NCBI GenBank assembly: GCA_902779035.1
Contig: CACZAH010000002.1
Location: forward strand, 16,688-80,687
Source: an uncultured Erysipelotrichaceae bacterium
GTDB lineage: Bacteria; Bacillota_I; Bacilli_A; RF39; UBA660
DNA: 64,000 nt
Reading direction: 5' to 3'
The number at the start of each line of letters is the position of its first letter. Within the stretch, counting starts at the first letter, position 1. Below the pieces are notes generated by a model. The model searched no databases. It saw only the letters and a list, made by a program, of their open reading frames with translations, and was not told where the DNA came from. Made by a program: the position numbers and the translations under genes. This document shows positions 6,322 through 51,442 of the stretch, in pieces.

Positions 6322-7647
6322 TCATCTAACTACTATTGCCATCGAACCAACTGATGAATACAAATTACTAACCTTACTTTTAGATAGAGTAAATTCATAT
6401 TGTCCCGAAGTTCTCGTCCATGGATCATATATAATAAAATCTCCTGTAATCTTATTATAACCTACAATTAATTGAACGTGTAAATTTCTTGGAACACCAT
6501 TAGACCAATTAACTGGACTGTTATAGGCATATGTTAAATATATAATTACTGGATTACCATTAACAATCTCACTTGCAATATCATCTATACTTGCACCACT
6601 TATATTAGAAATATTTCCATTACCAGATGATGATATTCCATATTCAACTAGTGGATTAGGAGCAATCCAATGAGCAACATCTCTTGGCTCCTTACCAAAT
6701 ATATCTAAGTAAAAACATGTATTAGGATTATCACTTTTTGGCATATTAGAAGCATACGTATATAAATCCATACCACTTAAATATCCCTTGTATTGTAACG
6801 CCATAAGCATTGATGTAGCTTCACATCCATTTAATACACCGTTTCTATTTTGACTTATGTAGGGAACATTCAATTTAACCCAAGCCTCGTTTATCTGTCT
6901 CTGTCTTTCTGCTTCTTCTTGAGCCCTTCTTTCTCTTTCAAGCCTTAACTGTTCTAGTCTTATTCTTTCCTTTTCTCTTGCAATTGCTTCTTTTTCTTCA
7001 ACTATAGTTAAAACAATACTAAGCTTTTCATTTAATTTGCTCTTAATATCTTCTTGTTTTAATGAATCAACTAGTGCTTTTACTTCATTATAAATATTCC
7101 TATTCACACTATCAATCACTACGTTATTATCATAATCACTAAATAAGTTATGAACACTATTATGTGCATTATTAATGTTATCATACTCACTTTTTAATTC
7201 ATTAATTCTATTTTGAATTATTTCTTTATACTTCTTATCTAATTTATTACTTTCTTCATTAAGTTTATTAATATCATCTTCTTTAATTGATGATATAACT
7301 ATATTATCTTTATAATAAATATTAATTTTATTATTTAAATTGATATATTCTTTTGCCCTATATAAATTATTTTTTATATCTAGTACACTATCCTTATTAT
7401 ATACTAATTTTATTTTATCTAAACAAGCATCTAACTCTTTTATAGTTACATTATCTTTTATTAAATCATCATTATACAAAGAGTTACAATAACTAACTGC
7501 ATTTTCATATATTTCTTTTCTTTTTTCAGCTAATTTAATTTTATCAGACTTTATTTTGTTATATAAAAGTATAACTAACAATATAGTAATCAATACAAAC
7601 AATAGTATAGAAATTATAATAATTAATTTTTTGTTACTTCTTATCAT
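6322..7647 (-). CDS. Membrane-anchored protein with a coiled-coil region and a C-terminal C39-like (papain-fold, Peptidase_C39_2/YvpB-like) cysteine-peptidase domain
   Basis: An N-terminal TM segment (LIIIISILLFVLITILLVILLY) and a long K/E-rich coiled coil. The C-terminal domain carries candidate Cys (NGCEATSMLMA) and His (HVQLIVGYN) residues. Confidence 0.45.
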   Translation of the reverse strand: MIRSNKKLIIIISILLFVLITILLVILLYNKIKSDKIKLAEKRKEIYENAVSYCNSLYNDDLIKDNVTIKELDACLDKIKLVYNKDSVLDIKNNLYRAKEYINLNNKINIYYKDNIVISSIKEDDINKLNEESNKLDKKYKEIIQNRINELKSEYDNINNAHNSVHNLFSDYDNNVVIDSVNRNIYNEVKALVDSLKQEDIKSKLNEKLSIVLTIVEEKEAIAREKERIRLEQLRLERERRAQEEAERQRQINEAWVKLNVPYISQNRNGVLNGCEATSMLMALQYKGYLSGMDLYTYASNMPKSDNPNTCFYLDIFGKEPRDVAHWIAPNPLVEYGISSSGNGNISNISGASIDDIASEIVNGNPVIIYLTYAYNSPVNWSNGVPRNLHVQLIVGYNKITGDFIIYDPWTRTSGQYEFTLSKSKVSNLYSSVGSMAIVVR

Positions 7648-7695
7648 ACACTTCTCCTACTTTTTAAGTATACTATAAACATAGAAAAAAAGGAA

Positions 7696-8844
7696 CTATC
7701 TATTTTGTTCCTTTATTAATTTTGCTTGAATAACTATTCTATTACCATTAAAATCTAGACAAGTAGAAAGTGTAAGTAATCTATCTTTTGTAGCAACATT
7801 TATTCCAAAGTCATATATACTACGTGATAGCATGGTATCAATAAATTTCTGATAAGATTCATCATTTTCAAAAGTATGAGTAAGATAATATGACTCTGAT
7901 GGAATTGTATAAATAGATACTATTTGCCACAATGTATTTTTCTCCGGTGTTGATAACTTAATAATCTGATTTTCTTTATTTGTATACCAAGATTCATCTA
8001 ATACCCTCTCTAAGCTACCAAACATAACTTGATCAACACGTCCATGCCCATATATAACAGTATTTTTTAAGAAATTATCAAAATTAGATTTATAGTCAGC
8101 AAATAACCAGCCGGCTACATTATATGATTTATCATAAGAGTGATTTAAATAAAACTCATTATCCCCACCTTGTACAAATGGATAATTAACATTAGTATTA
8201 TTTACATAAATCCATCCCTTAGTATCAGGATTAATATTTTTTAATTCATCAAAATTAACACTAATCATAGTTGTTTTCATATAATTCCAATAATCTTCAC
8301 CATATTTATGATTTTCTGCAGCTTCACCTGTTACTTCTGGAATTTCAGTAGCGCTAAAAGCAATATTTTCTTCTATTTTTGTATTCTTAAGTACATTATT
8401 CATTAGATGATGAACATCTTCACCTTCACTATACCAATTAAACAATGTAACTCCTCCAAAAATAAGAGCAGATAACGATATAAATAACAATATAAAGTAT
8501 TTATTAAAAATCTTAATCTTTTTCTTAGTCTTTTTCTTGCTATAAATAAAACTATCAACAAGATTCTTTATTTCTTTATCATTTTTTAAATTTTTTTCAT
8601 TTAAAGAATCAATGAAACTATCTATTTTAGATTTTCCTTCATCATTAAATTCAAATACCTTAAGCCATCTATCATATGGAGTATAAATATCTTTATCATT
8701 AACTATATCATGTTTAAAGTAAAAATATTTATTATTCTCTTTACAGATAATGAAATCAATATCATTATATTTAAAACTATATATTTTATTATATACTTTA
8801 CCATTATATAAACATAAAGAATTCATACTCATCCCCCTCTTCAA
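7696..8844 (-). CDS. Sortase (class B-like transpeptidase) with an unusually long N-terminal cytoplasmic domain and a TM anchor
   Basis: The C-terminal domain has the sortase catalytic signature: His (VIYGHGRV), TLSTC, and a downstream Arg (NGNRIVIQA). A TM helix (FILLFISLSALIFGGVTLF) follows ~110 aa of N-terminal sequence with no recognisable motif. Confidence 0.75.
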   Translation of the reverse strand: MKRGMSMNSLCLYNGKVYNKIYSFKYNDIDFIICKENNKYFYFKHDIVNDKDIYTPYDRWLKVFEFNDEGKSKIDSFIDSLNEKNLKNDKEIKNLVDSFIYSKKKTKKKIKIFNKYFILLFISLSALIFGGVTLFNWYSEGEDVHHLMNNVLKNTKIEENIAFSATEIPEVTGEAAENHKYGEDYWNYMKTTMISVNFDELKNINPDTKGWIYVNNTNVNYPFVQGGDNEFYLNHSYDKSYNVAGWLFADYKSNFDNFLKNTVIYGHGRVDQVMFGSLERVLDESWYTNKENQIIKLSTPEKNTLWQIVSIYTIPSESYYLTHTFENDESYQKFIDTMLSRSIYDFGINVATKDRLLTLSTCLDFNGNRIVIQAKLIKEQNR

Positions 8845-8916
8845 TTGGTGTTTATACTACCACAAATATAGAAAAAAAGCAAATTAATAAAAAGCAGATC
8901 ACAAGGATCTACTTAA

Positions 8917-10359
8917 TTATTTTTGATGTTTTAATTTATAAATTGATAATCCTGCACCAACAGCACCAATAAGAGTAATTACAACAAACATTGTAATATT
9001 TTTACCAGCTGTATCTGGAGTTTTTGAGTTATACATTACAACACTAGTTTCAACTTCACCAGAGTCTCCTACGTTAAACTTAATTACTTCATAACTTAAA
9101 TCATATCCTGAAGGTGCTTGAATCTCAATTAAAGTATATTCACCTTTATCAAGTTCAAGATAATGAGGTTCAGTACCTGATACCCATCTATCAATCTCTT
9201 CACCCTTAGAATTTTTAAGTACTAAAGTCGCTCCTGGTAGTTCTTTCTTAGTTGTAATGTCCTGCTTACTAATCTTTACTTTATACTTGTCTTTTAATGT
9301 GTTGTACATAGTAATCTCAGCAACTTTTCCATCGGCCTTTAACTCAAACTCAATAACTTCTTCAGTTAATTTATAACCGTCTGGAGCAATAATCTCAGTT
9401 AAAGAATATTTTCCTGGCTCTAAACCTTCAATATAATGAGCTTCATCACCAGATACCCACTTATCAACTTCATCACCATTTGAATTTTTAAGTACTAAAG
9501 TCGCTCCTGGAAGCTCTTTTTTATTTGTTAAATCTTGTTTACTAATTTTTAACTTAGTTATTTTCTTAGTAATATTTCCACTAATACTTTTATCACTAGT
9601 CTTATCTGACTTTTCAACTTCATTTATTGTACTAGCCTGATTACCGCTACCACAATCATATTTTTTGGCAATACTCATACTTTTATTTGCACTTACCTTA
9701 ACATTAACAGTAGTAGTTTCATCAACCTTAACAGATGTATTTGGCACTTTAACATAGAACTCATTTCCATTTTGTTCATATGTAGCACCTTCCGCACCAC
9801 TAACACTTATACTGTATTCATCACTACCAGATACAGTTACTTTATTAGAAATATAATTATCTCCATTTAAAGTAAAAGTTAACTCGTCTGTACTTAAACT
9901 AACACTATAATCCTTCTTAGCCGCATTATAAGCGTTAACAGCTGCATCATAATAAGATTGAATTGAATCAACAACTCTTATATTATTAACTTCATCGTGA
10001 GTTTCATAATCATATAAGAATTTATTAATAGCAAGTTCTGCATAATAATAATTTTGTGTACTAGGTGATGCATTATACTTATCAATTATTGCAGCAACTC
10101 CAGCAGCACCTGCATAACTCCATTGTTCACTACTTAATTTACAGCTTGTTCCAACACCATCAATGTTAAAAGTTGTACAGAAAACTACTCCGTTTCCATA
10201 CACTTTATGATAAAGTTCAATTCCTCCATCATAACTAATTACACTTTCCTTAGTAATACCATCAATACTATTTGGAAGTGCATTTACTCCACTTGTACCA
10301 ATTATTGATACAATTCCTATTACAAACACTAGTAATAGATACTTTATTTTGTTAAACAT
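8917..10359 (-). CDS. Secreted surface protein with two tandem SpaA/CnaB-type domains, an N-terminal domain shared with the 67-2007 protein, and the C-terminal tail TPDTAG + TM + KLKHQK
   Basis: Signal peptide; two repeats of KKELPGATLVLKNS.GxExDxWVSG.EPHY.E...YTL.EI.AP.GY; and a C-terminal sorting-signal-like architecture without LPXTG. Confidence 0.6.
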   Translation of the reverse strand: MFNKIKYLLLVFVIGIVSIIGTSGVNALPNSIDGITKESVISYDGGIELYHKVYGNGVVFCTTFNIDGVGTSCKLSSEQWSYAGAAGVAAIIDKYNASPSTQNYYYAELAINKFLYDYETHDEVNNIRVVDSIQSYYDAAVNAYNAAKKDYSVSLSTDELTFTLNGDNYISNKVTVSGSDEYSISVSGAEGATYEQNGNEFYVKVPNTSVKVDETTTVNVKVSANKSMSIAKKYDCGSGNQASTINEVEKSDKTSDKSISGNITKKITKLKISKQDLTNKKELPGATLVLKNSNGDEVDKWVSGDEAHYIEGLEPGKYSLTEIIAPDGYKLTEEVIEFELKADGKVAEITMYNTLKDKYKVKISKQDITTKKELPGATLVLKNSKGEEIDRWVSGTEPHYLELDKGEYTLIEIQAPSGYDLSYEVIKFNVGDSGEVETSVVMYNSKTPDTAGKNITMFVVITLIGAVGAGLSIYKLKHQK

Positions 10360-11418: not shown

Positions 11419-11703
11419 CTAAAATACATCACTATGACTACCAGTATTAACTAATAATAAAATTAGTTCATTATCCAAATATTTATATATTAATAGCCAA
11501 TCAGGTTCAATATGACAATCACGACATCCTTTATATTTTTTGTCATCATATAATGTATGATCTCTATTCTTTATTTCTAATTGCTCTTTTATTGCCAATT
11601 TTTCTATAACTAAATCAAGCTTACTTAAATCTTTTCCATGCTTTAGCATCTTCTTTAAACTTTTCTTAAATTGATTAGAATAAATAACTTCATATTTAAT
11701 CAT
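11419..11703 (-). CDS. yafQ: Type II toxin YafQ (RelE/ParE superfamily mRNA interferase)
   Basis: KYKGCRDCHIEPDWLLIYKY...LLLVNTGSHSDVF aligns with E. coli YafQ (WKGYRDAHVEPDWILIYK...RTGTHAALF). Confidence 0.85.
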   Translation of the reverse strand: MIKYEVIYSNQFKKSLKKMLKHGKDLSKLDLVIEKLAIKEQLEIKNRDHTLYDDKKYKGCRDCHIEPDWLLIYKYLDNELILLLVNTGSHSDVF

Positions 11704-11704
11704 A

Positions 11705-11983
11705 TTACATAAGTTCCTTTTTAAGTTCTTCCCAATTGTTATTCTTTTTATATTCTTCTAGATGTGTCTCAATATAATCAAGTTCTTCTAATGCTGCTTT
11801 CATATCATTACTCATTTGTGGTTCTCTAACTTCAAAAGGAATACCACCTCTCATAATTACTTGTTTTATGGTCATATTAATTAAACCACTCATGGTAACT
11901 CCTAATCTTTGTAGTATTTCTGTTGCTTTTTCTTTATCTTTAGCATCTACTTGTACATTTATAGGAGCAGTTAAACTTGCCAT
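11705..11983 (-). CDS. dinJ: DinJ/RelB-family antitoxin (RHH)
   Basis: PINVQVDAKDKEKATEILQRLGVTMSGLINMTIKQV..GGIPFEVREP aligns with E. coli DinJ. The stop is 1 nt before the yafQ start. The start was chosen at the internal ATG (MASLTAP...). Confidence 0.8.
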   Translation of the reverse strand: MASLTAPINVQVDAKDKEKATEILQRLGVTMSGLINMTIKQVIMRGGIPFEVREPQMSNDMKAALEELDYIETHLEEYKKNNNWEELKKELM

Positions 11984-12110
11984 AATGCCATCTCCTTTCA
12001 ATCTAATAATAACATATTTTATATAATTTTTCAAGTATTTTTGTATAAAATCACTACATCTATAATAATATTATATGTATATTTTCAACTAATTATTCAA
12101 TAATTATAAT

Positions 12111-12141
12111 AAAAACTTGTGTATTAATCTGTTACACAAGC
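12111..12141 (-). repeat. 31-bp perfect direct repeat copy B (same hairpin), overlapping the 3' end of the LCP gene
   Basis: Identical to 11368-11398. On the minus strand the hairpin is followed by TTTTTATTAT. Confidence 0.8.
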
Positions 12142-13998
12142 CTTTATAGATGCATCATAGCTATAATTATCAGGACAACATACCATGCCTAATTTTTCAT
12201 AATGATAATTAGTTTCACACACAGGTTTCTTCTCATAATTTGCTTTAGTACATTTGCCATTATTCATTTTATAATCTTTAGGACATGTTAAGTCTACACT
12301 ACAAGTCTCTATTCCATCTTCATCTGTTTCAAGTTCACCTGTACAAATAGCCTCTTCAATATCAACATCATCTGTTTCTATTAAACACATGCCATCTTCC
12401 TGATTCTTACAAGCTGGATACATATAATCTTTAATATCTTTCTTTTGTTTTATTTCTTCTTTAGTAGTATTGGTCTCTTCTTTCTTTTCTTCTTTTGTTT
12501 CAGTCTCTTCTTTAGAACTATAATTATTAGTTGCAGTAGTAGCCGGTCCATCATATGTATATGTTGGCTCTAACTTCTTGCCATTAATAACATCATTAAT
12601 TAGATTATGTGCTTGTTCAATAGAACCTAATTTGGGTTCAAATACGAATAGTTTCATATTTCCACCACTATAAGTATAGTTATTACTATTAACTCCATCT
12701 AAGTTATATGTAGATATATTCCAAGTAGACATATCATTTAATTGCATCTTTAATAATGATGTAATCTTATTAGAACTCATATTAGTTTGGAATTTTCCTT
12801 TTAAAGAATTTAATAATGAATCATATTTAGTAATAATACTCTTACTACAAACTTTCTTGATTAATGCAGCTATTACTGCTTGTTGATCTTTACCACGTTG
12901 TATATCTCCTGCTTGAAAAGCCTTACGTTCTCTTGCAAAAGCTAAAGCCTGCTCTCCATTCATATTATTATTTCCCTCAGTAAAATGTACGCCATCTATT
13001 GATGTAAATGTATAATCAGAATATACTGTAATTCCACCTAACGCATTAACTATATCAATTAATGATGTAAAGTTAACTTTTACATAATAGTTAATCTCTA
13101 TATCAAGCAAATCTTCAATAGTTGCGATAGACATATCAACTCCATATATTCCAGCATGAGTTAATTTATCTTTAATACCTGTTGTACCGTGTAACTGGAC
13201 ATAATAATCTCTTGGAATACTTGTAAGTAATACTTGTTTAGTTTTAGGGTTAACTGTCGCAACTATATTTACATCACTTCTTGATACTGACGAAATCTCA
13301 CCATAAGTATCTATTCCAGTTATATAGATATTAAATGGTTTTCTTGTTACATTAACATCTTTTGCCTTAGTATTAGATTTAATCTTAATAACAAATTTAT
13401 AAATTACTTTTGTCTTATTATTAAATTCAGGGTCATCTTCATTAACCATTGATAATACTGAATCTTCTAACATAATAACTTTTTCTTCATTATTTAATAA
13501 TTTACTTGCCATCTCATTTGCATCATCATAATCTTTAAAATTAACATCAACGTTTTTAAGAACTTTCCTATTTGCATCTTTAGCTCCTTTAGAATTAGAG
13601 TAATATGCAACATTTAAATCCTTAATATCTTTTATTTTATTATATTCACTATCCTTTACAACTATTACTGAATACGTTTCTGTCTTATAGTCAGTTGGTC
13701 CTATTTTTGCAAGGAATCCTAGTGTATTTAAAATATAATGAGCAAAAAATGCCATAACTCCTAATACTACTATTGTTAAAAAAGCAAAGAATCCACGTAC
13801 TCCTTTTCTAGCTTTCTTACGCATTAGAAATATATCAAAGAATATATTGATGAATGCAATTCCACCTAGCACTAAATATAAATACTTATCAGGAAGCAAA
13901 TTAACTTTATATATAATATATGACATGAATAAACTTGCTAGAAATAGTATTAAAGCAAGTATTTTAAATATACTCAATCTTCGTTTTCTTCTTCTCAT
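12124..13998 (-). CDS. LytR-CpsA-Psr (LCP) family glycopolymer transferase with an N-terminal TM anchor and an unusual Cys-rich acidic C-terminal extension
   Basis: The LCP core LLTSIPRDYYVQL...GIYGVDMSIATIEDLLDIEINYYVKVNF..LIDIVNALGGITV is present. The C-terminal ~110 aa carries 14 Cys. Confidence 0.8.
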   Translation of the reverse strand: MRRRKRRLSIFKILALILFLASLFMSYIIYKVNLLPDKYLYLVLGGIAFINIFFDIFLMRKKARKGVRGFFAFLTIVVLGVMAFFAHYILNTLGFLAKIGPTDYKTETYSVIVVKDSEYNKIKDIKDLNVAYYSNSKGAKDANRKVLKNVDVNFKDYDDANEMASKLLNNEEKVIMLEDSVLSMVNEDDPEFNNKTKVIYKFVIKIKSNTKAKDVNVTRKPFNIYITGIDTYGEISSVSRSDVNIVATVNPKTKQVLLTSIPRDYYVQLHGTTGIKDKLTHAGIYGVDMSIATIEDLLDIEINYYVKVNFTSLIDIVNALGGITVYSDYTFTSIDGVHFTEGNNNMNGEQALAFARERKAFQAGDIQRGKDQQAVIAALIKKVCSKSIITKYDSLLNSLKGKFQTNMSSNKITSLLKMQLNDMSTWNISTYNLDGVNSNNYTYSGGNMKLFVFEPKLGSIEQAHNLINDVINGKKLEPTYTYDGPATTATNNYSSKEETETKEEKKEETNTTKEEIKQKKDIKDYMYPACKNQEDGMCLIETDDVDIEEAICTGELETDEDGIETCSVDLTCPKDYKMNNGKCTKANYEKKPVCETNYHYEKLGMVCCPDNYSYDASIKACVTD

Positions 13999-14061
13999 AA
14001 TATCACGCTACCTATTTTTTCAATTATAACAAAATATATTGTTTGTGTAAATTAGATTCAC

Positions 14062-15192
14062 TTAAATTTCATTTATAATTCTTTTATACTCTAAATTGAA
14101 ATAATCATCAGTCATACCAGCAATAAAATCTATCACAATTCTTTTAGATGTATTTTCTTTATATATTTCATCTTTATAATTAAGATATACTTTAAATATT
14201 GGAGAATCTAAATTACTATTCTCTATATCATTTACATACGTATTAAATAATAATCTAAACATATCTTCATATATATCTAAATCTTCTTTAGTATTAGCTT
14301 TAAGATATATATATTTATAATTAAAATCTTTAAGTTCTTTAATCGCATTATAAACATTATCAGATATCTTTATATAGTTTTTATTATAACTATTTTTAAT
14401 AATATCCATAACAATAGTATTTACAATCTCACGGTTATTATTACCAAGTACATTTGTAATAGTATCTGGCACATCTTTTTTATCAATGATACCAACTCTA
14501 ATTGCATCTTCAATATCTCTACCCAAATATCCAATTAAGTCACTAACTCTAACTACACACCCTTCAAGAGTCATAGGTCGCATTTTTTTAATGATATTCT
14601 TATCTTTATAACTATTAATGTATTCCTCTAAAAACTCATCTACAGTTTTTTCTCTAGGTTCATAAATTCCAAGTGCAACCTCACCATTATGACACATTAT
14701 TGCATCTAGCACTTGAACAGTTATATTTCTACCAAGTCCCTTATTTTCAATACTCATAAGCGTTCTTACACTCTGAATATTATGATTAAAATAACCTTCA
14801 TTATTTTCTAGACTTATCTTATTTAGTATTGCTTCTCCTACATGACCTATTGGTGTATGACCTAAATCATGCCCTAATGCGGCAGCTTCTATCAAATCTT
14901 CATTTAAGTTTAAAGCTCTACCTATAGTTCTAGCAATCTTACTTACTAATTGAACATGAATTATTCTTTTACTAATATTAGTATTATCATTATTAGAAAA
15001 CACTTGTGTCTTATCTAAATATCTTGTATATGATAGAGAATAGATTATTCTATCAGTATCTCTAAAGAAAGGAGTTCTGAAATCAGCATCTTCATTATGT
15101 AATCTAATTGCTTTACTATCAGGGCATGCATAAATAGAAAGTTTATCTTGAAACTTAATCATATTATCTTTATAATTCACAAAACCACCCAC
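14062..15192 (-). CDS. HD-domain dGTP triphosphohydrolase-like protein
   Basis: The HD motif GHDLGHTPIGH is present, and the overall pattern matches Dgt-like short dGTPases. Confidence 0.65.
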   Translation of the reverse strand: MGGFVNYKDNMIKFQDKLSIYACPDSKAIRLHNEDADFRTPFFRDTDRIIYSLSYTRYLDKTQVFSNNDNTNISKRIIHVQLVSKIARTIGRALNLNEDLIEAAALGHDLGHTPIGHVGEAILNKISLENNEGYFNHNIQSVRTLMSIENKGLGRNITVQVLDAIMCHNGEVALGIYEPREKTVDEFLEEYINSYKDKNIIKKMRPMTLEGCVVRVSDLIGYLGRDIEDAIRVGIIDKKDVPDTITNVLGNNNREIVNTIVMDIIKNSYNKNYIKISDNVYNAIKELKDFNYKYIYLKANTKEDLDIYEDMFRLLFNTYVNDIENSNLDSPIFKVYLNYKDEIYKENTSKRIVIDFIAGMTDDYFNLEYKRIINEI

Positions 15193-15202
15193 CTAATAAT
15201 TA

Positions 15203-16165
15203 TTATCTTGTTATTTTAGTTCCGTATTCAACTTTATTTTCTAATTCACAAGTATCTAATCCTACAGTATATTTATCTCCATCTATCATAAATATTGCCT
15301 TATTACTAGGGCAAAATCTAAGTACGTGCTCTAAATATTTACCATCACCATAAGCAGATTCAGCCCAACCAGGTAAATACATATCAGGATTATTATGTAT
15401 GTTTTCTATCTCAGTAATCCATGATGTATCACTATAATCTTGCATAACTGCTTTTGCATTATCACCATACAATTTAGCCATCATCATATCTATCATACCT
15501 TGACCATAGTTATGTGACTGAATAGCAAGAAATACATTGCCATAATTTTCTTTTAATTTGTTTTGAAACATCATACAACCTATTTTTATGTTTGTCTCTA
15601 AATCACATGCAGCATCCATTGTAACATATTCAGTATCCCATTCATTAGTATCATAGTTATATGCAGTAACTGCCTCTCCACTAGGACTTTCTAGTTGCAT
15701 TAAACCAACTCCATAACCTGAATACCATTCACCACCAGGTATACAAGCATTATGATTAAGACTTGTTTCCTGCATTGCGATAGCAGCCATAATATTAGGA
15801 TCAACACCATATTGTTTAGCATACTTATAAATGAGTTGTCCTTCTGGTGAAAAAAGATAATCAACAACAACCTTTTTATCGGGACTACTTCCCACATTAA
15901 AAGGGTCTAAAGCTTTATTCTCATTATCTATACTTACATCATTATTCTGTGTTGTATAATTTGCATCATCATTACTTACTGTTGAAACTTGAACATCATT
16001 ATTAGTTGGTTCATTTTCTGCTTTTGCAACACTAAGTGAAATTAAATAACCCTCTGCAATAAATAGTATTCCTAAAGCTAAAGCCAATCTACGTTTTTTA
16101 CATTTCTTAGTTTCTCTTATTTTTTTATTATTATATTTATTATCTCTATAAACTTTTCCGTTCAC
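15203..16165 (-). CDS. Lytic transglycosylase (SLT domain), membrane anchored
   Basis: N-terminal TM. SLT signatures AIAMQETSLNHNA (catalytic Glu), GVGLMQL and HNYGQG. Confidence 0.7.
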   Translation of the reverse strand: MNGKVYRDNKYNNKKIRETKKCKKRRLALALGILFIAEGYLISLSVAKAENEPTNNDVQVSTVSNDDANYTTQNNDVSIDNENKALDPFNVGSSPDKKVVVDYLFSPEGQLIYKYAKQYGVDPNIMAAIAMQETSLNHNACIPGGEWYSGYGVGLMQLESPSGEAVTAYNYDTNEWDTEYVTMDAACDLETNIKIGCMMFQNKLKENYGNVFLAIQSHNYGQGMIDMMMAKLYGDNAKAVMQDYSDTSWITEIENIHNNPDMYLPGWAESAYGDGKYLEHVLRFCPSNKAIFMIDGDKYTVGLDTCELENKVEYGTKITR

Positions 16166-16166
16166 A

Positions 16167-17198
16167 CTAACACTCCTTCTTTAACGCATGTAAATATTCA
16201 ATAGTAGTTTTCTTTTCTACTTCTTTATTCTTACTTGCTTTATATCTTTTATGATTACACTCATATCTTTTATAAATACCATATTTTTTCATTATATCTT
16301 CTATCTCTTTAAAACTCATAATACCTTCATCATTGTAACTTAAGAATATATATTTAAACTTTGCATTCTTAATTAAATCTTCAAACTCACGAGCTACCTC
16401 ATTCTTTTTATTATATTTAGATTTAAATTGTTCAATTCTAGTTCCGGCTTTACCACTAATCTCGGGATAATCAGAGTAAGCAATAGTTTCTAATATATGA
16501 TAATTAGTTGCATACTTTCTTGAATTATAAGGTGGATCTAAGTATAGTATATCACCTTTAATCTCTTTAATAAGTTCATTTGAGTCTTCAATATATACCT
16601 TACATTTACTATCTTTATTAATAACTATATCTATAGGTTTTAATTCCATAGTTTTCTCAGCAGACTTCTTCATACTCTTTAGGAATGCTTCATATACTGA
16701 TGCAGTATTGGCTACTTTATCAGCTGCCTCTAGTAAACAAGTAAGTAAATAATAATACTCATTCTTAGTAATAACTTCTTTCTTATACCACTTCTCTATA
16801 CAATCTCTAATAGAATCTATTTTAATTGCATTCTCGCTACTATAGTAGCACCTTTCATACTTACTACCAAGAGTACCTTCTAATGTATAATTATTGTATA
16901 TAAATCCATGATAATTATTAAGTTTATTTAAATAGATAAACGGATCACTTATACCAATTAATTTTAATCCAGAAAAACTAGGTATGCTATTATTCTCTAA
17001 GTAATGCTTATTCATTACATAACTATAAAACTGTGTATCATTTGCAAGAATATCAAAACCTAATGATTTAAACCTCTTACCAACTACACCAGTACCCGCA
17101 AATATATCACAAAATACTTTATTATCCTTACCAGCAAAATCAATAATAGATTCCTCTATAAAATCAATTATCGAATGTTTAGAACCTATATAATTCAT
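16167..17198 (-). CDS. Dam-family (MethyltransfD12) N6-adenine DNA methyltransferase; no cognate endonuclease nearby
   Basis: YIGSKHS (cf. Dam WAGGK), DIFAGTGVVG (the FxGxG AdoMet motif) and LYLDPPYN (DPPY catalytic motif), in Dam order. Confidence 0.8.
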   Translation of the reverse strand: MNYIGSKHSIIDFIEESIIDFAGKDNKVFCDIFAGTGVVGKRFKSLGFDILANDTQFYSYVMNKHYLENNSIPSFSGLKLIGISDPFIYLNKLNNYHGFIYNNYTLEGTLGSKYERCYYSSENAIKIDSIRDCIEKWYKKEVITKNEYYYLLTCLLEAADKVANTASVYEAFLKSMKKSAEKTMELKPIDIVINKDSKCKVYIEDSNELIKEIKGDILYLDPPYNSRKYATNYHILETIAYSDYPEISGKAGTRIEQFKSKYNKKNEVAREFEDLIKNAKFKYIFLSYNDEGIMSFKEIEDIMKKYGIYKRYECNHKRYKASKNKEVEKKTTIEYLHALKKEC

Positions 17199-17294
17199 AC
17201 AACCTCTCCCCTACCTGTCTGTATAAATTATACACTAAATTTATAATAATTTAAAGTATATATCAAAAAAACTGATTTCTCAGTTTTATAAAGG

Positions 17295-18557
17295 TTACTC
17301 GAGTGCAGATTTTTTTAAGTTAATAACAGGTCTTATTCCTATACCATAATTAATTATACCATCACTTTTACTTATTCTTCCATCAGGATTCATTCTATAT
17401 ACATCATTTATATTATATTGGCTCATCGTCCAATAAGTAGTTCCCACATCATAAACCCACGCTGGAACATCAGAGTTTTTATTATCCGATTCTCCATATC
17501 CTAAATTATTTCTAAGCTCATCTACCGTTATCAATCGTATTTTATAATTCAAATTATCTTCAGCTAAATCCAAAGAATTGATTTTTTCACTTGCCCAAGA
17601 ATCTATAATATATTTAACATCACTTTGATTATAATCTGTAATGCAATTTGTTAATACATATGAATTGTTTACATAACCACATCTATCAGATGAATAATAT
17701 GCTGTCCCACCATATATTCCTTTGGCAAACACTTCTCCAGCTGATCTAAATGTATATTTATTAATATGGCCTACACCATATGTATTTACTTCCTCTATTT
17801 TAAACGGTTCTGCCTTTAATAAAGTTATATAGTCTTGATGTTTATCACTATCAGCTATTACATAATAATTTACATCATTATAAGTAACATAATCACCTAC
17901 TTTATACGGCCTATATACAATTTCTCCATATTTATAATTATTTTCACTATTATCCAATACCATTTCGTTATCGACTGAACACCTAGTTAAATATACTGTG
18001 CCATCATAGTTGATAGATACATCACAACTTACTTCTTTATCTAATGGTGGTAGTTCTAGAGTTGTATAATCACTAGGGTATTCATTATGTTCATCATGAT
18101 ATTTTTTTAAAGCATCTTCTAAATTCTTACCATATGTATCCACATATTCTTGATTTGTCATTTTAAGTATTCCATAATGGTAATAGCCATCTATTTCTTT
18201 ATCATCTTTTACTAATTTACCATTTACCTTACATTCTGACAAGTATATTGAATAATCAGGATTAATTCTACTTGTTTTACATTCTACTTTATTACCTTTA
18301 TATTCTATTTCTAGTTTATCAAAATTATCAGGGTAGGCTAGATGTACTAACTGATAATCAGCCATTGCATATTCTACCGCTCTACCATATCCATCTACAC
18401 TTCTTTTATTTGCAACATCTTTTACTCTTCTAATTGTATTTAAAAGTAATGGTGCGACTATTAATGATATTACTGCAAGAATTACTAGGACTGCCATTAA
18501 TTCAATGAGTGTAAAAGCATTAATTTTCTTTTTTCTTACCTTTTTTATTCTACTCAT
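17295..18557 (-). CDS. Large (420-aa) protein with a type IV prepilin-like N-terminus (class III signal peptide; prepilin peptidase / N-methylation site)
   Basis: MSRIKKVRKKKINA|FTLIELMAVLVILAVISLIVAPLL is a basic leader followed by FTLIELM and a hydrophobic helix. The C-terminal 370 aa has no recognisable motif. The start was chosen at the second ATG, which has an RBS. Confidence 0.6.
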   Translation of the reverse strand: MSRIKKVRKKKINAFTLIELMAVLVILAVISLIVAPLLLNTIRRVKDVANKRSVDGYGRAVEYAMADYQLVHLAYPDNFDKLEIEYKGNKVECKTSRINPDYSIYLSECKVNGKLVKDDKEIDGYYHYGILKMTNQEYVDTYGKNLEDALKKYHDEHNEYPSDYTTLELPPLDKEVSCDVSINYDGTVYLTRCSVDNEMVLDNSENNYKYGEIVYRPYKVGDYVTYNDVNYYVIADSDKHQDYITLLKAEPFKIEEVNTYGVGHINKYTFRSAGEVFAKGIYGGTAYYSSDRCGYVNNSYVLTNCITDYNQSDVKYIIDSWASEKINSLDLAEDNLNYKIRLITVDELRNNLGYGESDNKNSDVPAWVYDVGTTYWTMSQYNINDVYRMNPDGRISKSDGIINYGIGIRPVINLKKSALE

Positions 18558-18641
18558 AATGCATCTACCTTTCATTGATATTATATCATAAAAAATCGTA
18601 TTTAGATATTTTTTTCTTATATTTTTTATTATGATGAGAAA

Positions 18642-19097
18642 ATGATGTTAGGCGATATGATGATTGCTGAACGTTTAAAAGATATTAGAATAGAAAATGA
18701 TTTAACACAAACTCAAATAGCTAAAATACTTAATACTACTCAAAATAGTTATAACAGATGGGAGAATAATGTTGAATTAATTAGTTTAAAGAAATTAACT
18801 AGGGTGTGCAACTACTTTAATACAAGTATGGATTACTTAGTTGGTATAACCCGAAATAATATAGGTAATGGCAAACACGATTTTAATTATAGTATTGTTG
18901 GAAATAATATTAAAATTTTTAGAAAAGATAATAAATTAAGCCAGAAAGATCTAGCAACTCTTCTTAATACATCACAATCTACAATAAGTGCTTATGAAGC
19001 AGGTAAAACTATAATTCTCACTGCATTTGCATTAGAAATAGTTAAGAAATATAACATCTCTTTAGATTGGTTATTTGGAAGAAAAGAAAAAAGTTAA
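18642..19097 (+). CDS. XRE-family transcriptional regulator with two tandem HTH_XRE domains
   Basis: Two copies of the pattern L..R..LTQ..IA..L....S.Y..WE.G... (residues 8-65 and 85-145). Confidence 0.7.
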   Translation: MMLGDMMIAERLKDIRIENDLTQTQIAKILNTTQNSYNRWENNVELISLKKLTRVCNYFNTSMDYLVGITRNNIGNGKHDFNYSIVGNNIKIFRKDNKLSQKDLATLLNTSQSTISAYEAGKTIILTAFALEIVKKYNISLDWLFGRKEKS

Positions 19098-19117
19098 GAA
19101 AAACTTAACTCTAACAA

Positions 19118-20144
19118 CTACATATGTTCTTTTTTACTAAACTCAATTAATTCATCAAAATCAGATAAATAGTTTTGATCTTGTCTTATTCGATATTTTT
19201 CATATTCAGATAACGCAAGTGTATCGGCTATTTCTCTTTTTATCTTTTCATTATCTTTTAAAATATTGTACTCATTCAGTTTTAAAAACAATTCTAATTT
19301 TTCTTTCCATTCCTTCATCGAAATAATATGACCTAATTTAACTTGTCTTTCAGCATAATCCAAATACATTGATACTAAATTATTCAATTCAGTTATTTCT
19401 TCTTTATATAAGTAGTTTTTAGCAACAACTACATCACTTTCTAATATTTTACCTTTAGGTGCATTCTTCCAAGTTTGCAAACCCATATTATCTTTTTTTT
19501 TGAATCTACTCTATTATAAATATTTCAGGAGCATTCATTCCAGTTATAGCAAAATAAAGCTTATTCTGTACATTTTTATAAAACTCTATAGTCGTTTCAC
19601 TATTTTTATCATAGTCATAGCTACATTCTTTATATATGTCGGTAATTTTTTGATAGAATCTTCTTTCACTTGCTCTTATTTCTTTTATTTTTAATAGCAA
19701 TTCATCAAAATAGTCTTTACCAAATTTTGGACCATTTTTTAACAGTTCAGAATTTACTACAAAACCTTTTTTTATATACTCCTTTAATGTATTAGTTGTC
19801 CAAATTCTAAACTGTGTAGCTTCAAAACTATTAACTCTATAGCCAACTGCGATTATCGCATCTAAACTATAAAAACTAGTATTATACTTTTTTCCATCAT
19901 TAGCAGTTATTCGAATTTTTCGAATAACTGAATCTTCCTCTAATTCTCCACTATTAAATATCTCTTTTAAATGATAGTTTATAGTATTAACCTTAACTGA
20001 AAATAATTCAGCCATAGTTTTTTGAGTTAGCCAAAAATCTTCACTATCATATAGAACTTCTATGATTTTACTTCCTGTTTCATTTTGATATAAAACTATA
20101 CTATTTAAATTAGAAACTTTATTCATATCATACACCTCAAACAT
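19118..20144 (-). pseudogene. RhuM-family (Virulence_RhuM) gene split into two ORFs (19506-20144 and 19118-19486) by a frameshift in an A9/T9 homopolymer tract at 19493-19501
   Basis: The N-terminal ORF carries YSLDAIIAVGYRVNSFEATQFRIWTTNTLKEYI, the hallmark RhuM motif. The adjacent out-of-frame ORF reads like the RhuM C-terminal region. The junction coincides with a 9-nt homopolymer. Confidence 0.6.
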
Positions 20145-20208
20145 TTAATTCAATTTACTTTAAATAGAAACATTTTATATTTATTACATTTTTAACGTAA
20201 AAAGAACA

Positions 20209-20241
20209 AAAGGAACTCCTCGATTATCTTGGAGTTCCTTT
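20209..20241 (-). terminator. Intrinsic terminator of the tRNA cluster (AAAGGAACTCC-N11-GGAGTTCCTTT + T-run on the minus strand)
   Basis: An 11-bp perfect inverted repeat. On the minus strand it is followed by TTTTGTTCTTTTT. Confidence 0.7.
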
Positions 20242-20253
20242 AATTTTCAAAAT

Positions 20254-20328
20254 GGTGTCTCGCAGGCGATTCGAACGCCTGACCCTTTGATTAAAAGTCA
20301 AATGCTCTACCTACTGAGCTAGCGAGAC
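20254..20328 (-). tRNA. tRNA-Lys (anticodon UUU), CCA encoded
   Basis: The cloverleaf was folded manually. The anticodon loop is CTTTTAA and the acceptor stem GCGAGAC/GTCTCGC. Confidence 0.8.
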
Positions 20329-20345
20329 ATATAATTAAAACAAGA

Positions 20346-20420
20346 TGGCTGCCTCGGCTAGATTCGAACTAGCGCATGCCACAGTCAAAGTGTGGTGCCT
20401 TACCGCTTGGCTACGAGGCA
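20346..20420 (-). tRNA. tRNA-Gln (anticodon UUG), CCA encoded
   Basis: The anticodon loop CTTTGAC is flanked by the stem CCACA/TGTGG. The 3' end is GCCACCA. Confidence 0.75.
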
Positions 20421-20433
20421 ATAACCTTATAAG

Positions 20434-20518
20434 TGGTGGAGGGAGATGGATTTGAACCATCGAACCCGAAGGAACAGATTTACAGTCTGCCGCGTTTGGC
20501 CACTTCGCTATCCTTCCA
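20434..20518 (-). tRNA. tRNA-Tyr (anticodon GUA), long variable arm, CCA encoded
   Basis: 85 nt long. Anticodon loop CTGTAAA; a GGTTCAAATCC T-arm. Confidence 0.75.
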
Positions 20519-20523
20519 TAAAA

Positions 20524-20600
<77 letters not shown>

Positions 20601-20620
20601 ATAATAATAAAAAAATAAAA

Positions 20621-20697
20621 TGGTGGGCGATATAGGACTCGAACCTATGACCCCTTGCTTGTAAGGCAAGTGCTCTAACCAACTGAGCTAATCGCCC
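20621..20697 (-). tRNA. tRNA-Val (anticodon UAC), CCA encoded
   Basis: Anticodon loop CTTACAA with the stem CTTGC/GCAAG. GGTTCGAGTCC T-arm. Confidence 0.75.
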
Positions 20698-49274: not shown

Positions 49275-49904
49275 ATGAAAAAAATCGTATTAAATCATTG
49301 GATGAATATCATCAAAAACAATAAAAGATATGATAATGTAAAACTTGCGGAAATTGAATATGGATTAACTGCTATATATTTAACTTTTTCTAAATTAATA
49401 GTAATTGCTCTATTATCTATATTGTTAGGTATATTTAAAGAAATGATAATCTTTTTATTAATTTATAACGTCTTAAGAATGCCATCATTTGGAATACACG
49501 CAACAAAAAGTTGGATATGTCTTCTAACGTCATCAATTCTGTTTATTGGATTACCAATTGTTTGTTTAAATATTCATTTAAGTATAGCAATAAAGATAAT
49601 TATTGGTGTAATTGAATGTTTCCTAATGTTTAAGAACAGCCCAGCAGACACAAAAAAAAGACCTATAGTTAATCCTAAACGAAGATTAACATATAAGTTT
49701 ATTTCTACAATACTAGCAATTACTTTTGTAGTACTAAGTATCACAATAAATAATATTTTTATATCAAATTGTTTAGTATTCGGATTAATTCTTCAAAACG
49801 TTTTAATATCTCCATTAACATATAAGATATTTAAACAACCTTATAATAATTATAAAGAATTTCTAAGATTAAATCCAGATTTTCTAAATAAGAAAGCGTG
49901 TTAA
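49275..49904 (+). CDS. agrB: AgrB-family membrane peptidase that processes the autoinducing peptide
   Basis: ~200 aa with 6 TM helices. The AgrB-conserved region LRMPSFGIHATK (cf. R..sGG.HA.) and PADTKKRPI. Followed by an AgrD-like ORF. Confidence 0.8.
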   Translation: MKKIVLNHWMNIIKNNKRYDNVKLAEIEYGLTAIYLTFSKLIVIALLSILLGIFKEMIIFLLIYNVLRMPSFGIHATKSWICLLTSSILFIGLPIVCLNIHLSIAIKIIIGVIECFLMFKNSPADTKKRPIVNPKRRLTYKFISTILAITFVVLSITINNIFISNCLVFGLILQNVLISPLTYKIFKQPYNNYKEFLRLNPDFLNKKAC

Positions 49905-49948
49905 TGTTATAAAGCATTTAACATAGAAATTCAGAAAGGAGGGTAGTT

Positions 49949-50068
49949 ATGGGATTTTTAGCAAACATTTTAGCTGCACTTGGTATTGGAAGTGCTGCGA
50001 CTGGATCACAAGCATGTCATTTATGGATACTTGACGAGCCAGAATGCCCAGAAAATTTAATCAAATAA
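49949..50068 (+). CDS. agrD: AgrD-like autoinducing peptide precursor (39 aa)
   Basis: An AAAGGAGGG RBS. The amphipathic leader MGFLANILAALGIGSAATGS; the Cys-containing core SQACHLWIL; and the AgrD-typical acidic tail DEPECPENLIK (cf. DEVEVPKEL in S. aureus and HQPEEP in C. perfringens). Confidence 0.75.
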   Translation: MGFLANILAALGIGSAATGSQACHLWILDEPECPENLIK

Positions 50069-50082
50069 TAATTTATTTATGG

Positions 50083-50126
50083 AAAAAGCTGTTAAACCTC
50101 TAAATCATAATTTACAGCTTTTTTTT
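50083..50126. terminator. Bidirectional intrinsic terminator between the convergent agrD and agrC-like genes (AAAAGCTGT-N21-ACAGCTTTT flanked by A/T runs)
   Basis: A perfect 9-bp inverted repeat with an A5 run before it and a T6+ run after it. Confidence 0.6.
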
Positions 50127-50140
50127 ACAGTTCTTTATAA

Positions 50141-51442
50141 TTACTTTGTATCCATTTTATAGAACAATTTTTGAGTAAATAAATCTTTTGTAATCATTCT
50201 TTCGTTATATAATTTTTGATTTTTTTCTAATGTTTTTTTTACTAATTGCAGACCATAACCTCTACCATCACCCTTAGAAGTCTTTAATTCCATATTATTA
50301 TTTTTAATCTCGCCTTGATAATTGTTTGAAATATCAATAACAAATTGATTGTTTTTTAAATAGAAATCTAAGTTAATAATCTTATTGTTAAGATTTTCAC
50401 AAGCATCTATTGCATTATCAATAAATACTCCTATTATTGTACATATATCTACTGCATCATCATCATTTACGTAAAAATTATGATTTGCAGATATTTTTTT
50501 ATCAACGTGAACATAATACTTTATTTGTTTTTCTTCAATGTTATTTAATTTACTATAAACTAATCCTCTAATACCTCCTTGAGGTATTCTTAAAGATGTA
50601 ATAATTGTTGAATTAATCATCGAATCTCTATTGTTTATTAATGAATTAATATAATTTAAAATCTTTTTATTTTTAGTCATTGATTTAATTGTTAATAATT
50701 GATTTTTGTTTTCATGATTTATTATTCTATATTCATCTATCAATTTCTCGCGTGTTTTTAAATCTTTTATACTAGTTTGATATTTAAAATTGGTTTTATA
50801 ATATTTATTTTGATAATTAAATGAATATATGACTATAATAGTATAAATAATTGCAATTATCGAATTTAATATCAGTGATAGTAAAACATTATTCTTAAAA
50901 TATATTGTAGTTGTAAAAATATTAGTACCTATCGCAACAAACAAAACTAATAGTGTAACTTGTTTTACATTAATACGCAATGTAATTCTTAAAAAGAAAT
51001 TATATAATTTTTTGATAAAACTAATTTTTGAAATTAACAGAGAAAATAAAGAAATAATAATATCTATAGAAATTGTTAAAAATGTAGAATTTGAGATTAT
51101 ATTAGCATCTACTTTTAAAACTAACATCATAAAAATATAAATTATAGATTCTGATATAATAATTATTAATTCAGTAAGAAATGTCAATAAAATTGATTTC
51201 CTTAGAGTTATCCTAAAAATATTTTTACAGAATACAATTAATAAAACAACTACTAAGAATCCTTTTATAAAATTATTACCATATTCATGAATTAATACAA
51301 TACAAATTGATAACAAAATCATTTCAATAATAAAATAAATATTTCTTTTCTCTATATTAATACTTGCAATTTTTTCCCAAATTGATACTTGCACAAATAA
51401 TGACACAAAAGTACTAATCACATCTAATATAAAATAACTCAC
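50141..51442 (-). CDS. AgrC-like sensor histidine kinase (HPK10 family: polytopic sensor plus a GHKL ATPase)
   Basis: A ~200-aa N-terminal domain with 6-7 TM helices. The H-box region RIINHENKNQLLTI, the N-box FIDNAIDACEN and the G-box SKGDGRGYGLQLV. Confidence 0.75.
   Translation of the reverse strand: MSYFILDVISTFVSLFVQVSIWEKIASINIEKRNIYFIIEMILLSICIVLIHEYGNNFIKGFLVVVLLIVFCKNIFRITLRKSILLTFLTELIIIISESIIYIFMMLVLKVDANIISNSTFLTISIDIIISLFSLLISKISFIKKLYNFFLRITLRINVKQVTLLVLFVAIGTNIFTTTIYFKNNVLLSLILNSIIAIIYTIIVIYSFNYQNKYYKTNFKYQTSIKDLKTREKLIDEYRIINHENKNQLLTIKSMTKNKKILNYINSLINNRDSMINSTIITSLRIPQGGIRGLVYSKLNNIEEKQIKYYVHVDKKISANHNFYVNDDDAVDICTIIGVFIDNAIDACENLNNKIINLDFYLKNNQFVIDISNNYQGEIKNNNMELKTSKGDGRGYGLQLVKKTLEKNQKLYNERMITKDLFTQKLFYKMDTK

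Follow-up and report, generated by a model that had tools for sequence, protein, structure and literature searches.

Comparison with related genomes points to two separate features, a solitary-methylase operon and an inserted pilin-like gene, in an uncultured Erysipelotrichaceae chromosome

Four adjacent genes on the minus strand of an uncultured rumen/gut Erysipelotrichaceae chromosome encode a protein with a type IV pilin-like N-terminus, an N6-adenine DNA methyltransferase (MTase), an SLT-domain enzyme and an HD-domain hydrolase, which raises the question of whether the four act together. Their adjacency on the same strand of one genome suggested a module, and the original prediction described them as an operon recalling DNA uptake and modification or derived from a phage. 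The analysis covered 64,000 nt of the chromosome (the window), on which all coordinates are based. Comparison with relatives split the supposed module into a core operon and an insertion. The favored explanation, to which a probability of about 0.7 is assigned, is that two independent features lie side by side: a conserved MTase-SLT-HD operon and a separate 3-kb insertion carrying the pilin-like gene. This explanation is based on gene content, synteny, selective constraint, the boundaries of the insertion and a predicted protein fold. The four minus-strand open reading frames (ORFs) were confirmed and the domain assignments (pilin, MTase, SLT, HD) upheld with Pfam and NCBIfam. The features on which the argument turns are as follows.

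12124-13998, minus strand: LCP (LytR-CpsA-Psr) glycopolymer transferase (PF03816, E = 1.8e-42)
14062-15192 (ORF; probable start 15180), minus strand: predicted HD-domain deoxynucleoside triphosphate (dNTP) triphosphohydrolase of the dGTPase family, 372 aa, closing the MTase-SLT-HD unit (PF01966, PF13286, TIGR01353)
15203-16165, minus strand: predicted SLT-type lytic transglycosylase or muramidase, membrane-anchored or secreted, 320 aa, the middle gene (PF01464, E = 3.5e-11)
16167-17198, minus strand: solitary D12-class N6-adenine DNA methyltransferase, 343 aa, heading the conserved unit (PF02086, E = 3.6e-40)
17227-17255, minus strand: promoter-like site TTTAAA-17-TATAAT for the MTase-SLT-HD unit (consensus scan)
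17263-17287, minus strand: terminator-like hairpin AAAACUGA-GAAA-UCAGUUUU with a U-run, just 3' of the pilin-like gene (RNA fold)
17295-18575 (ORF; start 18557), minus strand: modular type IV pilin-like protein, 420 aa (PF07963, TIGR02532)
17257-20223, no strand: window-specific variable segment with the RhuM remnant, the XRE gene and the pilin-like gene (homology breaks against the related loci L022 and L023)

The gap between the MTase and SLT genes is 1 nt and that between the SLT and HD genes about 22 nt, in agreement with the tight spacing originally noted for these three genes. The GTG start of the SLT gene sits 1 nt past the MTase stop, behind an AAGGAG ribosome-binding site. The MTase, SLT and HD genes are very probably co-transcribed, and translational coupling of SLT to MTase is part of the explanation favored here. 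The tight spacing does not extend to the pilin-like gene, which is separated from the MTase gene by a gap of 96 nt that holds both the hairpin and the promoter-like site. The 8-bp hairpin with its U-run had a folding energy of -10.3 kcal/mol (z -2.5), and only 1 of 200 shuffled sequences folded as well; a G+C-based terminator scan missed it because it is A/U-rich. Alignment of the regions upstream of the MTase from six loci revealed a -10 block, (G)TGTATAATT, common to the window, L022, L023 and L024, beyond which the upstream sequences are unrelated. Thus the claim of a four-gene operon is not borne out, since the pilin-like gene lies in a window-specific 3-kb segment and is divided from the other three genes by the hairpin and the conserved -10 block. 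The pilin-like gene and the MTase-SLT-HD genes appear to lie on separate transcripts, whose boundaries we infer from these elements. A further promoter-like site (14023-14051; 11 of 12 consensus positions plus a TG) precedes the LCP gene, which probably has its own promoter. The starts at 15180 (HD) and 18557 (pilin-like) are those chosen by gene callers on identical metagenome contigs.

Six independent metagenome assemblies contain this locus without change, and it is therefore not an assembly artefact. The G+C content of the window is 27%, and ribosomal-protein operons and SecA are close by. Only metagenome-assembled genomes were available for the MTase-bearing clade; those of relatives are labeled uncultured Erysipelotrichaceae or "Bacillales", and the isolate name RUG14702 among them suggests a rumen origin. 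Relatives were seen as loci with about 17-kb flanks.

In blastn, homology to L022 and L023 breaks off at 20209-20224, immediately beyond the tRNA-Lys terminator, and is found again from 17250-17256; the 3 kb of 17257-20223 is therefore specific to the window. The insert lies between the tRNA-Lys terminator and the MTase promoter. At the same position L023 has only about 490 bp; the L022 insert there is a different one, about 1.4 kb long with a 177-aa ORF and bounded by a 76-nt att-like repeat of the 3' part of tRNA-Lys (L022:5882-7450). Judged from these three sequences, the site between tRNA-Lys and the MTase promoter is an insertion hotspot. A blastn search found no tRNA-Lys att repeats flanking the 3-kb insert in the window. 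The remaining genes in and beside the insert are listed below.

18642-19097, plus strand: double helix-turn-helix (HTH) XRE/RstR-like repressor, divergent from the pilin-like gene (two HTH_3, NF041951)
19118-20144, minus strand: RhuM-family pseudogene in two ORFs (PF13310)
20253-20697, minus strand: tRNA cluster Val-Thr-Tyr-Gln-Lys (ARAGORN, Rfam)

The divergently encoded XRE regulator with two HTH domains, part of the original prediction, was confirmed by two HTH_3 domains (E = 1.2e-28) and a match to the RstR model NF041951 (83.9 bits against a cut-off of 80). It was not found next to pilin-family members at the other loci examined, and an operator search of the XRE-pilin intergenic region gave only A/T-rich inverted repeats of uncertain meaning. 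In the RhuM gene, positions 1-139 of the PF13310 profile are matched in one ORF and positions 150-249 in the other, and the conserved motif IYNRVDSKKK reads in a third frame. Around an A9 run the reading frame is interrupted by two or more frameshifts, identically in five independent assemblies (L001-L005); the gene is a decayed pseudogene. Separately, an HNH-like ORF is present in L022 (L022:5117-5539) where the window has tRNA-Thr.

The gene order MTase-SLT-HD-LCP was kept in at least five related lineages, with MTase identities of 65-92% (92% in L022/L023, 80% in L024, 74% in L010-13, 69% in L014-17 and 65-66% in L049). The HD identity was 82% in L022/L023, and HD orthologues of 62-83% identity occupied the equivalent position across relatives. 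The tight spacing or overlap among the MTase, SLT and HD genes was preserved in every syntenic locus, LCP always followed HD in the relatives, and DapA, SpaA and sortase genes came after LCP in some lineages. The upstream neighbor of the MTase varied, being a tRNA cluster in L023, Mob_Pre/TnpV in L010, an XFP phosphoketolase in L014 and L049, and in L024 a RepA_N-like ORF and a P-loop ORF resembling a coupling protein by eye. The proposed coupling of a pilin gene to MTase-SLT-HD was absent from the syntenic loci, except that a different member of the pilin family lies about 2.5 kb upstream in L024. Separate transcripts and conserved housekeeping synteny in relatives, which had been named in advance as evidence against an operon coupling the four genes, are thus largely what was found.

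The ratio dN/dS was calculated between the window and L022 as Nei-Gojobori estimates. The values were 0.064 for MTase, 0.105 for DapA, 0.126 for LCP, 0.166 for HD and 0.30 for SLT, a ranking that identifies the MTase as the most constrained gene of the cluster. Since dS was similar for all five genes (0.8-1.1), the results indicate co-inheritance, the MTase having diverged together with its neighbors. In the favored explanation, MTase-SLT-HD is accordingly regarded as a probable core operon, vertically inherited and common to a clade of uncultured rumen/gut Erysipelotrichaceae.

The PF02086 match covers residues 3-301 of the MTase (E = 3.6e-40), and the protein has both DIFAGTG (the S-adenosylmethionine-binding FxGxG motif) and the catalytic LDPPY, neither of which varies across the family. 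The original description as a Dam-like N6-adenine MTase holds for the D12 class and the DPPY motif but not for Dam orthology: the dam model TIGR00571 gave no match even at E <= 1, and a search of the PDB with the family profile returned no Dam, T4 Dam or DpnM chain at E <= 0.01. Indeed, PDB searches with the single sequence and with the family profile found nothing. By these searches the enzyme is of the D12 class and no Dam orthologue. The comparison with the competence-induced methylase DpnA does not apply either, as DpnA is a methylase of the N6_N4 class. The full-length protein was matched by type II MTase models of PADLOC (MTase_II PDLC03257, E = 5e-102), including the first half of a 646-position profile that seems to resemble the two-domain M.FokI. 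Annotated phage relatives, at 27-40% identity, carry the names "ulcer associated adenine specific DNA methyltransferase" (an HpyIM-type annotation), LlaI methylase and FokI methylase. Membership of the HpyIM/FokI-like branch of the D12 class is accordingly taken as probable within the favored explanation.

The genes flanking the MTase in the window are the pilin-like and SLT genes, and no nuclease gene adjoins it. More distant relatives of the MTase, at 59-61% identity, were found in three island contexts, each directly after a protein of ~370 aa that is 60-72% identical among the copies, contains a CELKDEQP motif (ELKDE) and has no Pfam match.

L018:4358-5479: ~370-aa candidate nuclease, directly upstream of a 59-61% MTase relative
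L050:1354-2466: ~370-aa candidate nuclease, directly upstream of a 59-61% MTase relative
L054:2819-3937: ~370-aa candidate nuclease, directly upstream of a 59-61% MTase relative

The ~370-aa protein gave no PADLOC or PDB match and, in NCBIfam, only a weak match to PRK00809. It is most simply explained as the cognate nuclease of the MTase relatives, which would make it a candidate for a new restriction endonuclease family. A tblastn search with it found no counterpart in the window or at any of the syntenic loci, in agreement with the prediction that the MTase has no nearby nuclease partner. Since the protein is found beside the relatives and is absent here, the MTase looks like a restriction-modification methylase that lost its nuclease, was retained and became domesticated. 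With dN/dS values of 0.06-0.21 and a nuclease-less locus in at least five lineages, it has the attributes of a lineage-conserved solitary methyltransferase.

The target motif was approached through the observed/expected (O/E) frequencies of short sites. The O/E of CATG was 0.27-0.30 in two loci with the candidate nuclease and 0.55 in the window, and this depletion makes CATG a tentative candidate for the target of the MTase. Across the window and L007, L009, L022, L024, L060 and L137, CATG ranged from 0.46 to 0.87. For GATC, the density of which had been proposed as a check, the O/E was 0.34 in the window and 0.27-0.59 elsewhere; the site is even scarcer than CATG in the window, but it is depleted in all the relatives sampled, one locus without the methylase among them, and is therefore uninformative on the MTase. 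The depletions suggest a long-standing restriction pressure on GATC and CATG sites in the lineage. An ICEA (NlaIII-like) gene adjoining a 61% MTase relative was also considered as an indication of CATG specificity. This line was weakened by L054, which is without ICEA yet has the ~370-aa protein, so that ICEA probably pairs with an adjacent N6_N4 methylase.

The SLT protein has an N-terminal hydrophobic anchor and the motifs AMQETS...GLMQL...HNYGQG, including the catalytic Glu of the E-S motif. It is the fastest-evolving product of the cluster (dN/dS 0.30-0.44), being 58% identical where its neighbors are 80-92% identical; the L014 counterpart has 472 aa and is 24% identical with the catalytic Glu retained. 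In L024 the gene is split into two ORFs (L024:9196-9944), through either decay into a pseudogene or a fault in the assembly. On plasmids, the proteins that best match the SLT domain (34-38% identity) are ~1,100-aa hydrolase fusions annotated as NlpC/P60 or M23. They adjoin proteins annotated as DUF87 or ATP-binding, which may be VirB4-type ATPases, and the Bt407 plasmid is typed MPF_T.

These plasmid matches allow an old mobile-element origin for the MTase and SLT genes, and it is conceivable, though improbable, that the two are what remains, after domestication, of a conjugative or mobilizable element inserted upstream of HD. Elements of this kind bring with them a solitary methylase that counters restriction, together with a VirB1-like wall hydrolase that serves the mating channel. 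Relatives of the MTase occur on 36 conjugative and 24 mobilizable plasmids, the SLT matches lie beside the DUF87/ATP-binding proteins, and directly upstream of the MTase are Mob_Pre/TnpV in L010 and the RepA_N-like and coupling-protein-like ORFs in L024. However, the window contains no relaxase, coupling protein, integrase or att repeats and no conjugation genes, and the MTase comes straight after housekeeping genes or tRNAs in L014, L049 and L023. Values of dS equal those of the neighbors, and composition is unremarkable. A mobile ancestry would explain at most the origin of the two genes, not their present function.

The HD protein matched TIGR01353 with 164 bits against a cut-off of 152.35, together with PF01966 and PF13286, and has the HD plus HD_assoc architecture with an intact H...HD...D motif; among solved structures the T. 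thermophilus dNTPase 2dqb is the closest. The HD protein failed all equivalog cut-offs (best 279 against 393 bits) and fell far short of the anti-phage dGTPase models NF041026 (116 against 400 bits) and NF003701 (102 against 383 bits). A homologue of 64% identity on a 1-Mb contig lies between rpoBC and genes for M16 peptidases, rpsD, ezrA and relA, with no MTase, SLT or LCP gene nearby. This context indicates that HD is a housekeeping gene and that its placement in the operon is confined to a subclade, and on sequence grounds the protein is classed as a housekeeping dNTP triphosphohydrolase. The role of antiphage dGTPase effector suggested for it is at odds with both the scores and the company of rpoBC, rpsD and relA.

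The 64% homologue also bears on whether MTase, SLT and HD work together as a functional module, such as a lineage-fixed epigenetic system with CcrM- or CamA-like control of the cell cycle or sporulation, in which adenine methylation is coordinated with cell-wall remodeling and dNTP supply. Gene order and the overlap or 1-22-nt spacing are kept in at least five lineages although SLT diverges to 24% identity, no gene of the cluster is more constrained than the MTase, and sporulation and germination genes are nearby in the organism. Against this, no known mechanism joins the three activities, the more distant relative has the HD homologue without MTase, SLT or LCP, the SLT gene is fast-evolving and split in L024, and operons of unrelated housekeeping genes are common. 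The functional module is therefore considered unlikely, as is its farther-reaching form, in which the domesticated methylase would be a new epigenetic regulator in a spore-forming clade, locked in place by translational coupling to wall-remodeling and dNTP-pool enzymes.

A role for all four genes in DNA uptake and modification, as a phage-derived module or in anti-phage defense under control of the XRE protein, can be judged from the same comparisons and from searches of viral sequences. The genes are adjacent on a single strand, HD matches the PADLOC dGTPase model (185 bits, E = 8e-55, from a library without a curated cut-off), the XRE protein reaches the RstR phage-repressor model, and the N-terminal part of RhuM matches the PADLOC candidate defense family PDC-S05. 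Yet the pilin-like, XRE and RhuM genes belong to a strain-specific insert that is absent from syntenic relatives bar the different pilin member in L024, the pilin-family members examined are never beside MTase, SLT or HD elsewhere, HD behaves as a core gene far below the anti-phage threshold, and RhuM is a pseudogene. IMG/VR gave no close relative of the MTase and, for the pilin family, only generic pilin-helix matches. In PHROGs, SLT and RhuM had no hits, and the pilin-like protein matched only generically at its N-terminus. Neither an integrase gene nor genes for phage structural proteins were seen in the window, and no competence genes in the parts of it examined. No link of the locus to phage or DNA uptake was found, the idea of a phage-derived module finding no close relatives in viral contigs. 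A joint role of the four genes is very improbable, as the synteny data already refute most of it.

The pilin-like character of the N-terminus was confirmed. PF07963 (N_methyl) matched with 26.7 bits against a cut-off of 21.2 and TIGR02532 with 23.2 against 16.3, and the predicted processing site lies between KKINA and FTLIELMAVLVILAVISLIV (KKINA/FTLIELM) with Glu at +5. An alignment of 47 homologues showed F+1, L+3 and E+5 to be invariant and the hydrophobic alpha-1N close to invariant. Family members begin with a class III signal peptide, continue with between one and three head modules of ~85 residues and end in a C-terminal domain of ~200 residues. The head modules consist of a helix and a beta-sheet with two conserved Cys and a D-G-x-Y-H-Y-G motif. 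The window protein has two such modules in tandem, the motif being degenerate in the second, and a C-terminal domain at about residues 215-420. The AlphaFold2 model (pLDDT 89.9) has a 56-residue alpha-1 helix (17-72) followed by strands at 91-98 and 104-111 and shorter strands to about residue 128, a predicted pilin fold; in Foldseek its similarity to solved pilins was weak (4d40, E = 1).

The C-terminal domain of the model is predicted to have a DUF6273 C-type-lectin-like fold. The sole significant Foldseek match in the PDB was 9qa6 (E = 6e-4), the T. ramosa IgA peptidase with an N-terminal DUF6273, followed with non-significant E-values by EgtB, which has a C-type-lectin/FGE-type fold. In BFVD the matches were DUF6273 proteins and gut-phage receptor-binding proteins (3e-6 to 1e-3). 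PF19789 (DUF6273) matched 16 of the 47 homologues (best 8.6e-8) and did not match the window protein at E <= 0.01, which is thus below the Pfam threshold. The assignment of 9qa6, the N-terminal domain of the Thomasclavelia ramosa IgA peptidase, to DUF6273 is published (PMC12402451), and DUF6273 has been described as C-type-lectin-like in receptor-binding proteins (tentaclins) of phages, where it is targeted by diversity-generating retroelements (DGRs) (PMC10743442). Type IV pilins of modular design are exemplified by two S. sanguinis proteins, PilB, which bears a vWA module, and PilC, which bears a lectin module (Raynaud et al. 2021, PMC8179133). The architecture of the window protein fits this design, and the protein is probably an adhesin.

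More than 1,300 homologues of the protein were found. Every family member examined was stand-alone, with none beside MTase, SLT, HD or pilus machinery. Most are among housekeeping genes (rpoBC, ychF, dnaB, aspS, glmS), the L024 copy is among mobile-element genes, and two copies occur on one 9-kb contig. A scan of JGI metagenomes identified 8 of 77 loci as true family members, again with none beside pilus machinery. No other pilin N-terminus is present in the window. Proteins of ~480 aa (P0030-P0053) are 84-87% identical to the N-terminal half and have a different DUF6273-type C-terminus, which suggests recombination or swapping of lectin modules within the family. The stretch between a conserved W-T-M-S and R-P-V near the C-terminus is hypervariable among homologues. 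The variable regions of C-type-lectin-fold targets of DGRs lie at such a C-terminal stretch. For the DUF6273 domain here, a blastn comparison of the pilin gene with the window gave no template-like repeat, and no reverse transcriptase was found in the window. Scattered as they are, the more than 1,300 DUF6273 pilin genes could supply a single pilus machine with a set of interchangeable lectin adhesins for its tip.

The stand-alone, multi-copy character of the family, never adjoining pilus-assembly genes, and the bulky extracellular part of roughly 350 residues with its one to three head modules would also suit a protein that is never polymerized, the signal peptide and alpha-1 helix serving as a membrane anchor for a surface lectin. 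Archaeal sugar-binding proteins with class III signals are a precedent for such anchor-only use. The invariance of F+1 and E+5 and the near-invariance of alpha-1N in 47 members speak instead for a signature of peptidase processing and filament packing, and bulky modular pilins are known at pilus tips (PMC8179133). An anchor without a filament is thus a doubtful possibility, though one to be taken seriously.

Several points count against the favored explanation as a whole. The hairpin is weak and A/U-rich, and some read-through from the pilin-like gene into the MTase is possible. The constant linkage of three seemingly unrelated genes in at least five lineages could mean an unseen functional connection. 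A nuclease partner could lie elsewhere in the genome, the view being of 64 kb and of about 17-kb flanks in relatives. The assignment of CATG draws on 27-40% identity to annotated enzymes and k-mer depletion in ~9-kb loci, and every relative sampled, one locus without the MTase among them, shows some depletion of both CATG and GATC. No prepilin peptidase or pilus-assembly gene (PilB/C/D- or ComG-like) was found in the 30-52 kb read ORF by ORF, and such genes were also missing among the called genes of the overlapping contig L001 (about 6-27 kb) and from the surroundings of the family members examined.

Other genes near the two features were recorded as well. A RelB/YafQ toxin-antitoxin pair at 11419-12034 (minus strand) separates LCP from DapA. 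The sister species L022 and L023 do not have the pair, and in them DapA directly follows LCP; it constitutes a second small insertion in the conserved gene array. Downstream of DapA, at 6322-10359 (minus strand), is a sortase-dependent pilus cluster encoding a SpaA-domain protein, a sortase and a C39 peptidase. SpaA and the sortase are kept in L022 and L023, and the cluster is a second, unrelated surface-fiber system near the pilin-like gene. At 49275-52143 an agr-like quorum-sensing locus was recognized by eye from translations, with an AgrB-like membrane protein (plus strand) and a histidine kinase and LytTR response regulator (minus strand).

The favored explanation can be set out as a sequence of events and activities, in which the action of the methylase and the processing and ligand binding of the pilin-like protein are, like the transcript boundaries, what we infer. 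A former type II restriction-modification methylase would have lost its nuclease and become fixed as a solitary N6-methyladenine (m6A) methylase. It would most likely methylate a short motif, tentatively CATG, throughout the genome in the service of regulation or housekeeping. SLT would act on the cell wall and HD on dNTP pools, probably with no mechanistic link to methylation. An insertion between tRNA-Lys and the operon promoter would have brought the decayed RhuM gene, the XRE gene and one member of the pilin family. The pilin-like protein would be processed by a prepilin peptidase encoded elsewhere, and the mature protein would present its DUF6273 domain as an adhesin, either on a type IV/Com-type filament or from the membrane. 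Since no peptidase or assembly gene was found in the parts examined, display on a filament is put forward as a proposal only. As a solitary m6A methylase under strong constraint and fixed in a clade of uncultured Erysipelotrichaceae, the enzyme is a candidate epigenetic regulator, and the large, uncharacterized pilin-like family with a lectin domain of the phage-receptor-binding type may matter for adhesion of gut and rumen Firmicutes. Both solitary methylases and modular pilins are established concepts, and nothing here is unexpected in kind.

Among known systems, the window MTase resembles M.HpyI and M.NlaIII (CATG) and M.FokI and M.LlaI in its D12 class, its DPPY and FxGxG motifs and its single-domain size of ~340 aa, and its nearest annotated relatives (27-40% identity) bear these names. 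It differs from them in having no adjacent nuclease and in lying within a conserved operon of unrelated genes. With Dam, CcrM and C. difficile CamA it shares the lack of a nearby nuclease, a fixed chromosomal position across species and strong purifying selection; it is an orthologue of none of these (no TIGR00571 match). The HD protein is like T. thermophilus TT1383 (2dqb) in its HD plus HD_assoc domains, length of about 375 aa, H...HD...D motif and core-genome context, and is not an anti-phage dGTPase of the type of Tal et al. (116 against 400 bits). The pilin-like protein follows the plan of modular pilins (PMC8179133), with a class III signal peptide and pilin module, a C-terminal ligand-binding domain that is not pilus-specific and a predicted role in adhesion. 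In contrast to S. sanguinis PilB and PilC, the grafted module is DUF6273 with one to three tandem two-Cys heads, and the genes are stand-alone, multi-copy and scattered outside any pil operon. Compared with the DUF6273 domains of phage receptor-binding proteins and the IgA peptidase, the domain is here fused to a pilin module rather than to a tail-fiber or peptidase scaffold.

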